From a phage: a stretch of DNA of 64,000 nt. Shown one piece after another: positions 48,898-49,729 of the stretch. The translations under genes were made by a program, and so were the position numbers. The notes below the pieces were generated by a model. That model was not told the origin of the DNA. It did not search any database and worked only from the letters and a program-made list of their open reading frames with translations. The stretch lies in sequence record PZ386977.1; one strand, 5' to 3'. Within the stretch, counting starts at the first letter, position 1. Each line of letters opens with the position of its first letter.

Positions 48898-48974
48898 TGG
48901 TCGAGACAGAAGGATTCTAACCTTCAACCTACGGATTAGAAGTCCGTTGCTCTATACAATTGAGCTATGCCTCG
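48898..48974 (-). tRNA. tRNA-Arg (anticodon UCU), CCA encoded
   Basis: hand-folded cloverleaf; anticodon loop CUUCUAA; acceptor CGAGGCA/UGUCUCG. Confidence 0.8.
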
Positions 48975-48978
48975 TATT

Positions 48979-49053
48979 TGGCGGACGTGATAGGATTCGA
49001 ACCTATAACCAATCGCTTAACAGGCGATCGCTCTGCCATTGAGCTACACATCC
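48979..49053 (-). tRNA. tRNA-Asn (anticodon GUU), CCA encoded
   Basis: anticodon loop CUGUUAA; T-arm AUAGG-UUCGAAU-CCUAU. Confidence 0.8.
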
Positions 49054-49057
49054 AAAT

Positions 49058-49144
49058 TGGTGGGGAGTGATGGAGTCGAACCACCCGAGTCGCAATGACA
49101 ATGGATTTACAGTCCACACCGCTACCTCTACGGGATAACTCCCC
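49058..49144 (-). tRNA. tRNA-Tyr (anticodon GUA), long variable arm, CCA encoded
   Basis: anticodon loop CUGUAAA; 87 nt; T-arm GGUGG-UUCGACU-CCAUC. Confidence 0.7.
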
Positions 49145-49156
49145 TAATTCATAATT

Positions 49157-49231
49157 TGGTGGCCCTGGGTGGAATTGAACCACCATCTGGCGATTATGAG
49201 TCGCTTGCTTGAACCTTCCAGCTACAGGGCC
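49157..49231 (-). tRNA. tRNA-Ile (anticodon CAU, lysidine-type) or elongator tRNA-Met, CCA encoded
   Basis: anticodon loop CUCAUAA; sits at the T4 tRNA-Ile position. Confidence 0.7.
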
Positions 49232-49232
49232 T

Positions 49233-49308
49233 TGGTGCTGATTGACGGAATCGAACCGCCGACCTTCTCATTACAAGTGAGTTGCTCTACCTACTGAGCT
49301 AAATCAGC
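49233..49308 (-). tRNA. tRNA-Thr (anticodon UGU), CCA encoded
   Basis: anticodon loop CUUGUAA; acceptor GCUGAUU/AAUCAGC. Confidence 0.8.
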
Positions 49309-49313
49309 AAAAC

Positions 49314-49403
49314 TGGCGGAGGCGATAGGATTTGAACCTATGAGTCGCCGGAGCGACTGCCGGTTTTCAAGACCGGTGCATTAAACCACTCTGCCACGCC
49401 TCC
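49314..49403 (-). tRNA. tRNA-Ser (anticodon UGA), long variable arm, CCA encoded
   Basis: anticodon loop CUUGAAA; 90 nt. Confidence 0.8.
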
Positions 49404-49405
49404 AG

Positions 49406-49479
49406 TCTCCATACAAGGATTTGAACCTTGGGCCTCCTGATCCCAAATCAGGCGCTCTACCAAACTGAGCTACACGGAG
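49406..49479 (-). tRNA. tRNA-Pro (anticodon UGG)
   Basis: anticodon loop UUUGGGA; T-arm CAAGG-UUCAAAU-CCUUG; no encoded CCA. Confidence 0.75.
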
Positions 49480-49489
49480 TAAATTAAAT

Positions 49490-49563
49490 TGGAGCGGATA
49501 ATGAGAATCGAACTCACATCATCAGATTGGAAGTCTGAGGTAATGCCATTATACGATATCCGC
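49490..49563 (-). tRNA. tRNA-Gly (anticodon UCC), CCA encoded
   Basis: anticodon loop CUUCCAA; acceptor GCGGAUA/UAUCCGC. Confidence 0.8.
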
Positions 49564-49568
49564 AAATT

Positions 49569-49655
49569 TGGTGCGAGAAGTGGGACTCGAACCCACAAGG
49601 AAATCATTCCGCAGCATTTTAAGTGCTGTGCCTTTACCAATTTGGCCATTCTCGC
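49569..49655 (-). tRNA. tRNA-Leu (anticodon UAA), long variable arm, CCA encoded
   Basis: anticodon loop CUUAAAA; 87 nt. Confidence 0.8.
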
Positions 49656-49656
49656 G

Positions 49657-49729
49657 CTGGGAATAAAGGACTCGAACCTTTGCATCCTGGAATCAAAATC
49701 CAGTGCCTTACCAACTTGGCTAATTCCCA
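49657..49729 (-). tRNA. tRNA-Gln (anticodon UUG)
   Basis: anticodon loop UUUUGAU; acceptor UGGGAAU/AUUCCCA; abuts tRNA-Leu (dimeric precursor as in T4). Confidence 0.8.

Follow-up and report, generated by a model that had tools for sequence, protein, structure and literature searches.

A ten-tRNA cluster in a Mosigvirus genome

The 64,000-nucleotide (nt) stretch of phage DNA analysed here (record PZ386977.1, referred to below as the window) belongs to a Mosigvirus, a relative of T4 within the Straboviridae (Tevenvirinae), and contains the compact cluster of tRNA genes that is the subject of this analysis. According to ARAGORN, the whole window holds ten tRNA genes and no more; all of them lie on the minus strand, within positions 48898–49729. 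The genes lie head to tail in the transcription order Gln(UUG)-Leu(UAA)-Gly(UCC)-Pro(UGG)-Ser(UGA)-Thr(UGU)-CAU-Tyr(GUA)-Asn(GUU)-Arg(UCU), where CAU denotes a tRNA whose amino acid identity is treated below. An initial annotation, made from the sequence alone, had proposed ten tRNAs with these coordinates, anticodons and order; the ARAGORN calls agree with it and place the genes on the minus strand, while the intergenic spacers, which had been put at 1–12 nt, were computed as 0–12 nt.

Covariance scoring against the Rfam family RF00005 (gathering threshold of 29 bits) was used as a check, and all ten genes reached the gathering score, nine of them at 60–74 bits. The cluster begins with tRNA-Gln (49656–49729; 67.4 bits), the class II tRNA-Leu (49569–49655; 64 bits), tRNA-Gly (49490–49563; 63.3 bits), tRNA-Pro (49405–49479; 66.8 bits), the class II tRNA-Ser (49314–49403; 62.6 bits) and tRNA-Thr (49233–49308; 72.9 bits), and continues with the CAU tRNA (49157–49231), a class II tRNA-Tyr (49058–49144; 30.2 bits), tRNA-Asn (48979–49053; 74.1 bits) and tRNA-Arg (48898–48974; 71.1 bits). 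Cloverleaves are intact in all ten genes, and the earlier assignments of Tyr and Asn are upheld by both ARAGORN and Rfam. A 3′ CCA is part of every gene except Gln and Pro (eight of ten), in line with the earlier statement that most of them carry it.

The score of tRNA-Tyr lies close to the threshold, and low Rfam scores proved to be a trait of the phage-type tRNA-Tyr family to which it belongs, a family whose D-arm is atypical and whose variable loop has 5 nt. The copy in Vequintavirus LL12 scored 29.9 bits and those of T6 and T5 fell below threshold, in comparison to 53 bits for E. coli tyrU. The possibility that a score of 30 bits marks a pseudogene was considered and rejected, as the T6 and T5 copies, which proved functional in published experiments, score lower and substitutions within the family keep the stems paired. 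Differences among the window, T6 and LL12 genes, including both of the positions that differ in T6, fall in stems where pairing is kept.

The closest relatives of the region are Escherichia phage p000y (98.5% identity) and Shigella phage JK36 (97.8%), both of them Mosigvirus, and the same ten tRNAs are annotated in p000y, JK36 and the Tequatrovirus RB3. A 166-nt segment covering tRNA-Tyr and tRNA-Asn was used as a query, with a record counted at 80% coverage or more, and gave at least 396 phage records, of which 251 match at 99% identity or higher; in RB3 and RB5 the segment is 100% identical. Records of Tevenvirinae that match the region as such number roughly 980. A list of the same ten tRNAs has been published for four Tequatrovirus phages of Shigella (PMC11993411), and Brok-Volchanskaya et al. 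(2008) described the Met/Ile-Tyr-Asn-Arg arrangement in T2L, RB1 and RB3 (PMC2330249). Typical Mosigvirus phages have been reported with two tRNAs (PMC12898486). Because it is annotated in relatives, occurs in this many records and has an arrangement published in 2008, the cluster is already known, and it is ordinary for Tevenvirinae: it is the segB-free ten-tRNA allele (T2L/RB1/RB3 type) of the T-even tRNA/stable-RNA operon, found here in a Mosigvirus.

Orthology with T4 and identity of the CAU and Arg tRNAs

The initial annotation described the cluster as the eight T4 tRNAs in T4 order with two additions. This description is accurate for anticodons and gene order, but orthology with T4 extends to six genes only, namely Gln (89%), Leu (98.9%), Gly (98.6%), Pro (98.7%), Ser (96.7%) and Thr (96.1%), which together span 89–99% identity. 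The CAU and Arg tRNAs are 63% and 57% identical to the T4 genes with the same anticodons and, judged by their sequences, are different genes that have only their anticodons in common with those of T4.

The CAU tRNA, at 63% identity to T4 tRNA-Ile, is 100% identical to genes of LL12, RB3 and T2. Its acceptor stem GGCCC/GGGCC (C4-G69, C5-G68) and its whole anticodon arm GCGACTCATAATCGC were found by alignment to match E. coli ileX and not metT, and among the E. coli blastn matches listed all are annotated as tRNA-Ile. The C4-G69 and C5-G68 pairs, together with an anticodon arm of ileX type, are determinants for TilS and IleRS. By these features the CAU tRNA is of the Ile2 type, for which modification with lysidine and reading of AUA would be predicted. 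An identity as elongator or initiator Met was rejected on the ileX/metT alignment. The unrelated myovirus LL12 carries the identical CAU tRNA together with a tRNA-Tyr of 96.6% identity to that of the window (2422–3235 of the LL12 segment), and it also has a 99-nt tRNA-like gene to which ARAGORN gave a four-base anticodon (atcc) and no amino acid.

The tRNA-Arg gene is of the Mosigvirus (RB69) type, with 97.5% identity to RB69 in comparison to 80.5% for RB3, 80.5% for T2 and 57% for T4. At 79 nt, the RB69 gene (6081–6159 of the RB69 segment) is longer than that of the window (77 nt) by an inserted GG on the 5′ side of the anticodon stem, which could be a sequencing error or the mark of an impaired gene.

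Probable exchange of the tRNA block between phage genera

Identity to other T-even phages changes abruptly along this region. The segment running from 50299 to 48898, which comprises part of trna.3, trna.2 and the ten tRNAs, is 95.2% identical to RB3 over 1403 nt, whereas the flanks at 43667–47461 and 50679–54893 are 95–97% identical to the type Mosigvirus, RB69, and only 68–75% identical to RB3 and T4. The sharp break in identity points to an exchange of the tRNA module between genera, and we infer that a block of nine genes (Gln to Asn), together with trna.2, entered this Mosigvirus lineage by recombination from a Tequatrovirus-like donor, with a recombination junction that would lie near the Asn/Arg boundary.

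RB3, as well as RB1, RB5 and many others, has the same ten anticodons in the same order, lacks segB and carries the stable-RNA genes rnaD and rnaC downstream; for RB3 itself, identity to the window is 100% for Ile, Tyr, Asn, Gly and Ser and 98.6% for Gln. RB3 differs from the window in its tRNA-Arg (80.5%), in having no open reading frame (ORF) between Arg and rnaD, and in its flanks, which are those of the other genus. RB69 resembles the window in its flanks (95–97%) and in its type of tRNA-Arg, which is followed by an ORF of 114 amino acids (aa), but its tRNA genes are limited to a T4-type CAU tRNA and Arg, and it lacks all nine genes of the Gln-to-Asn block.

T2/T2L shares with the window the order Met(CAU)-Tyr-Asn-Arg, followed by an ORF of about 115 aa, and the lack of segB, with Ile and Asn genes at 100% and Tyr at 98.9% identity. 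It differs in that an ORF replaces tRNA-Thr, which leaves nine tRNAs, and in its tRNA-Arg (80.5%); from Ile to rnaC the two sequences are 84% identical overall. T4 carries its tRNAs at the same site downstream of ipI and trna.4–trna.2, with six orthologous tRNAs and with rnaD, rnaC and the terminator conserved at 88%, in the order Gln-Leu-Gly-Pro-Ser-Thr-Ile-[segB]-Arg-rnaD-rnaC. In T4, segB takes the place of the window's Tyr and Asn, and Arg directly precedes rnaD with no ORF between them. The order in T6 is Gln-Leu-Gly-(truncated Thr)-CAU-Tyr-[segB]-Arg, without Pro and Ser and with segB in place of Asn, and its tRNA-Tyr matches that of the window at 85 of 87 nt (97.7%); neither the variable arm nor the GUC|A cleavage site differs between the two. 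The annotated tRNA-Thr of T6 (2643–2717 of the T6 segment) received no ARAGORN call and matched the Rfam model at positions 8–63 only; it resembles a remnant left by truncation or fusion where a deletion took out Pro and Ser.

The number of tRNA genes among these relatives ranges from 2 in RB69 through 6–7 in T6, 8 in T4 and 9 in T2 to 10 in the window. This variation could be interpreted as showing that Tyr and Asn are largely neutral passengers of a recombination hotspot, the content of which drifts by gene conversion between co-infecting phages. Such an interpretation would agree with the mosaic structure of the locus (a tRNA block at 95% to RB3 within flanks at 68–75% to RB3 and 95–97% to RB69), with the 100% identity of the CAU tRNA to a Vequintavirus gene and with the presence of SegB sites within tRNA genes (PMC2330249). 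It is quite improbable in view of the conservation of Tyr-Asn at 99% or more in 251 records and its intact state in at least 396, of the differences in tRNA-Tyr among the window, T6 and LL12, which by keeping stem pairing argue for purifying selection, and of the measured phenotype for T6 tRNA-Tyr that is described below.

segB homing and the probable derivation of the T4 set

No segB homologue was detected in the window, as a tblastn search of T4 SegB against its whole length returned noise (E=4.2). In T2L, RB1 and RB3, the preferred 27-bp site of SegB is located within tRNA-Asn, and in T4 x T2L crosses segB homing excludes approximately 1250 bp containing Met, Tyr, Asn, Arg and two ORFs; a secondary site of the enzyme has been placed in tRNA-Ser (PMC2330249). 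The tRNA-Asn of the window is expected to carry the preferred SegB site because it is 100% identical to the tRNA-Asn of RB3 and T2, where the site was mapped (PMC2330249). The 3′ 28 nt of this gene (48979–49006) are also 89% identical to those of tRNA-Ser (49314–49341), and by sequence the two ends correspond to the published primary and secondary sites.

The segB gene occupies the Asn position in T6 and the Tyr plus Asn position in T4, and records with the segB-free Tyr-Asn allele outnumber those with the T4-type Ile-segB-Arg allele about threefold (at least 396 versus 126, both at 80% coverage or more). In view of segB homing, the SegB site in tRNA-Asn and these allele frequencies, the earlier description of Tyr and Asn as genes inserted into a T4 set probably has the direction of change reversed. 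The eight-tRNA set of T4 is best read as a ten-tRNA cluster after segB homing had replaced Ile-Tyr-Asn-Arg.

Codon and amino acid demand

Codon usage was compared between 77 non-overlapping ORFs of the window (17,022 codons) and 39 ORFs of a 49-kb segment of E. coli K-12. Codons read by the ten tRNAs were all over-represented in the phage relative to the E. coli sample, with phage/E. coli ratios of 4.7 for AGA, 4.3 for AUA, 3.1 for ACA, 2.8 for UCA, 2.6 for AAU, 2.4 for UAU, 2.3 for UUA, 2.25 for GGA and 1.4 for both CCA and CAA. At the level of amino acids, Tyr was the most enriched residue of the window ORFs (4.67% versus 2.53%, 1.85-fold) and Asn the third most enriched (5.75% versus 3.74%, 1.54-fold). 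In the ORFs of the plus strand, for the most part late genes of the baseplate, values exceeded those of the window as a whole, with Tyr at 5.45% and Asn at 6.43%.

These enrichments, higher still in the late-gene strand, support the proposal in the initial annotation that the additional tRNAs supplement codon usage. The main function of the cluster would be to supply tRNAs for those codons and residues on which the AT-rich genes of the phage draw much more heavily than E. coli does, and Tyr and Asn, which have one isoacceptor each, are probably present since phage proteins, and late structural proteins above all, are rich in both residues. By analogy with T4, the ten tRNAs would be made as polycistronic precursors that are cut by host processing enzymes, with CCA added to Gln and Pro by the host.

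tRNA-Tyr and PtuAB-type nucleases

The tRNA-Tyr of the window is 100% identical to that of RB3, 98.9% to T2, 97.7% (85/87 nt) to T6 and 96.6% to LL12, in comparison to 67% for E. coli tyrU. Its 3′ half, with the variable arm (GUC-AUUGC-GAC) and the T-arm, is identical to that of T5 tRNA-Tyr. In the T5 record AY587007.1 the annotated tRNAs are offset by approximately 68 nt from the ARAGORN predictions, with tRNA-Tyr annotated at 35193–35280 and predicted at 35261–35348.

Searches of E. coli returned no chromosomal match to the phage tRNA-Tyr at E≤1e-3; its matches were to plasmids only, at 90–94% identity, and such plasmids, probably phage-plasmids, are present in 269 of the 5426 complete E. 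coli genomes. For the phage tRNA-Asn nothing relevant was found among E. coli matches and none was chromosomal at E≤1e-3. A chromosomal E. coli origin of the phage tRNA-Tyr and tRNA-Asn was rejected, as neither has a chromosomal match at this threshold. Plasmid NZ_CP024264.1 (72 kb) carries a tRNA-Tyr of 94% identity to that of the window in an Asn-Tyr-Thr-Ser cluster (positions 4921–5471 of the retrieved segment), which adjoins genes for a primase, a ligase, a CobT-like protein and an integrase.

Septu PtuAB was recently found to cut tRNA-Tyr at C48/A49 in the variable arm, including the tRNA-Tyr of T6 itself (Chihara et al. 2026; PMC13096335). Overexpression of T6 tRNA-Tyr or its SegB-driven amplification restores infection under Septu, while T4, which is without tRNA-Tyr, cannot escape, and T2 is resistant (PMC13096335). 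Azam et al. (2024) demonstrated that phage tRNA-Tyr, and even that of E. coli, gives dose-dependent rescue from retron-Eco7, and that rescue by T5 tRNA-Tyr depends on promoter and dose (PMC11555353). Rescue from Septu or retron-Eco7 has been shown for tRNAs of T6, T5, SP15 and KpP_HS106 (PMC13096335, PMC11555353).

By analogy with these phages, the tRNA-Tyr of the window would very probably act as a dose-dependent buffer against the destruction of host tRNA-Tyr by nucleases of the PtuAB type (Septu, retron-Eco7). Any protection would come from quantity and not from resistance, because the GUC|A site is kept and T6 tRNA-Tyr is cleaved at C48. The SegB-driven amplification route to Septu escape would be closed to this phage on its own because it has no segB. 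The counter-defence role that the initial annotation suggested for both additional tRNAs is supported for Tyr only, through the published rescue by T6 and T5 tRNAs (PMC13096335, PMC11555353), but not through the anticodon-based rationale that had been offered for it.

Anticodon nucleases, PARIS and tRNA-Asn

That rationale held that Tyr and Asn, with their GUN anticodons, may stand in for host tRNAs cut by colicin E5-type anticodon nucleases. Colicin E5 cleaves the tRNAs for Tyr, His, Asn and Asp, and both phage genes do have the G34-U35 anticodon start. The anticodon loops of tRNA-Tyr (CUGUAAA) and tRNA-Asn (CUGUUAA) are identical at 7/7 positions to those of E. coli tyrU and asnT. Phage tRNAs that evade nucleases through anticodon-loop mutations have been described (PMC10264068). 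The Tyr and Asn genes of the window are not of this kind and have no intrinsic resistance at these loops because the loops are identical to those of the host, and the phage copies would be substrates as well, unlike the evader tRNAs (PMC10264068). ARAGORN found no His or Asp tRNA in the window, colicin E5 is a bacteriocin and does not figure as an effector in the phage-defence literature cited here, and where cleavage of a T-even tRNA-Tyr has been documented, the nuclease attacks the variable arm and not the anticodon. With loops identical to the host and His and Asp not supplied, the E5-type rationale is unsupported, and we regard it as a highly improbable explanation of the two genes.

A further nuclease that bears on tRNA-Asn is AriB of the PARIS system, which cuts E. 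coli tRNA-Asn(GUU) at 40|41, near U36-A-A-U39, as a minor target, while its main target is tRNA-Lys; T5 tRNA-Asn contributes to rescue from PARIS (PMC12409363). The tRNA-Asn of the window has G39, C40 and G41 where the host has U39, C40 and C41, and T5 tRNA-Asn also has G39. The window gene is 62% identical to the host gene overall, and its entire anticodon stem differs.

It is possible, although we hold this tentatively, that Tyr and Asn serve mainly as counter-defence spares, Tyr by refilling the pool depleted by PtuAB and Asn by making up for host tRNA-Asn lost to AriB of PARIS or a similar nuclease, with supply as a secondary role. The rescue experiments with T6 and T5 tRNA-Tyr would agree with this, as would the identity of the window gene to those of T6 (97.7%) and of Septu-resistant T2 (98.9%), and the occurrence of the phage-type tRNA-Tyr in unrelated groups (Vequintavirus, T5-like phages and plasmids of 269 of the 5426 E. 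coli genomes) suggests strong selection. For Asn, the cleavage of tRNA-Asn(GUU) by AriB, the aid given by T5 tRNA-Asn (PMC12409363) and the G39 shared with T5 point the same way, but this part of the evidence is weak, since, with the whole anticodon stem diverged (62% overall identity), position 39 would be expected to differ by chance. Moreover, Asn is a minor AriB target, and a phage without tRNA-Lys would stay sensitive to PARIS. The retained cleavage site in tRNA-Tyr also speaks against a primary defence role, and the high Tyr and Asn content of phage proteins accounts for both genes without any defence system.

A more far-reaching version would make tRNA-Tyr a circulating anti-PtuAB cassette and tRNA-Asn a second spare, resistant to an AriB-like nuclease, with the nine-gene block imported for defence and not for codon supply. 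The phage-type tRNA-Tyr is 85–100% identical across Tevenvirinae, Vequintavirus, T5-like phages and plasmids in approximately 5% of E. coli genomes, but we consider this version unlikely.

Flanking elements of the operon

The cluster is positioned between the ipI/trna.4–trna.2 genes and the genes on the e.8–e side, as seen by synteny with p000y, JK36, T4, RB69 and RB3. A candidate sigma-70-type promoter, TTGACT-17-TATCAT (49836–49864, minus strand; 10/12 matches), is located approximately 106 nt upstream of tRNA-Gln. Downstream, a 114-aa ORF (48535–48879, minus strand) lies between tRNA-Arg and rnaD and matches phrog_3355 (E=3e-50); its stop codon overlaps the start of rnaD. Equivalents of this ORF follow tRNA-Arg in RB69 (ORF150c) and T2 (about 115 aa) and do not occur in RB3, T4 or T6. 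Pfam and PHROGs searches of the neighbouring ORFs returned no family with an annotated function.

Alignment to T4 and T6 identified homologues of T4 rnaD (stable species 2 RNA; 48419–48538, minus strand, with coordinates mapped from the T4 annotation) and rnaC (stable species 1 RNA; 48274–48412, minus strand), which are 88–91% identical to those of T4 and T6. The rnaC homologue ends in a tRNA-like T-arm, CCGGG-TTCGAAT-CCCGG, and the Rfam search gave no family covering rnaC or rnaD. An intrinsic-terminator hairpin, AGCCCCuuCCGAAAGGuuGGGGCU, followed by a T run (48203–48231, minus strand) is conserved in T4 and T6 and probably ends the tRNA/stable-RNA transcription unit.

Overall interpretation

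Taken together, the locus is best explained as a segB-free tRNA/stable-RNA operon in which supply is the main function and tRNA-Tyr provides buffering against PtuAB-type nucleases, with the T4 set arising from such a cluster after segB homing; we assign this reading as a whole a probability of roughly 80%. Several observations weigh against it. The supply argument is correlative and rests on the 49-kb E. coli sample, and Lys, the second most enriched residue (1.76-fold), has no tRNA encoded in the cluster. T4 and most Mosigvirus phages (RB69, GADS24) manage without Tyr and Asn, so neither is essential. On the side of defence, tRNA-Tyr retains the GUC|A cleavage site, and with regard to homing, a search for remnants of tRNA-Asn next to segB in T4 and T6 found none and gave only a weak 23-nt match within the 3′ end of segB itself (score 17), which is no evidence for the direction of the event. 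Promoter-like sites in the region are not more numerous than the shuffled expectation, so that the promoter ahead of tRNA-Gln is a candidate only.

As a discovery the cluster carries little weight, but it is instructive in demonstrating that a shared anticodon does not guarantee orthology of tRNAs between related phages. The points added by this analysis are the non-orthology of the Ile and Arg tRNAs to those of T4, the probable Tequatrovirus-like origin of nine of the genes in this Mosigvirus, the elements found downstream (ORF, rnaD, rnaC and terminator), and the prediction of a SegB homing recipient. As such a recipient, the allele would be predicted to lose Asn, and possibly Tyr, in co-infection with a segB-bearing phage. 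If the reading of T4 given above is true, the famous eight-tRNA set of T4 would be a derived arrangement shaped by a homing endonuclease and not the baseline.

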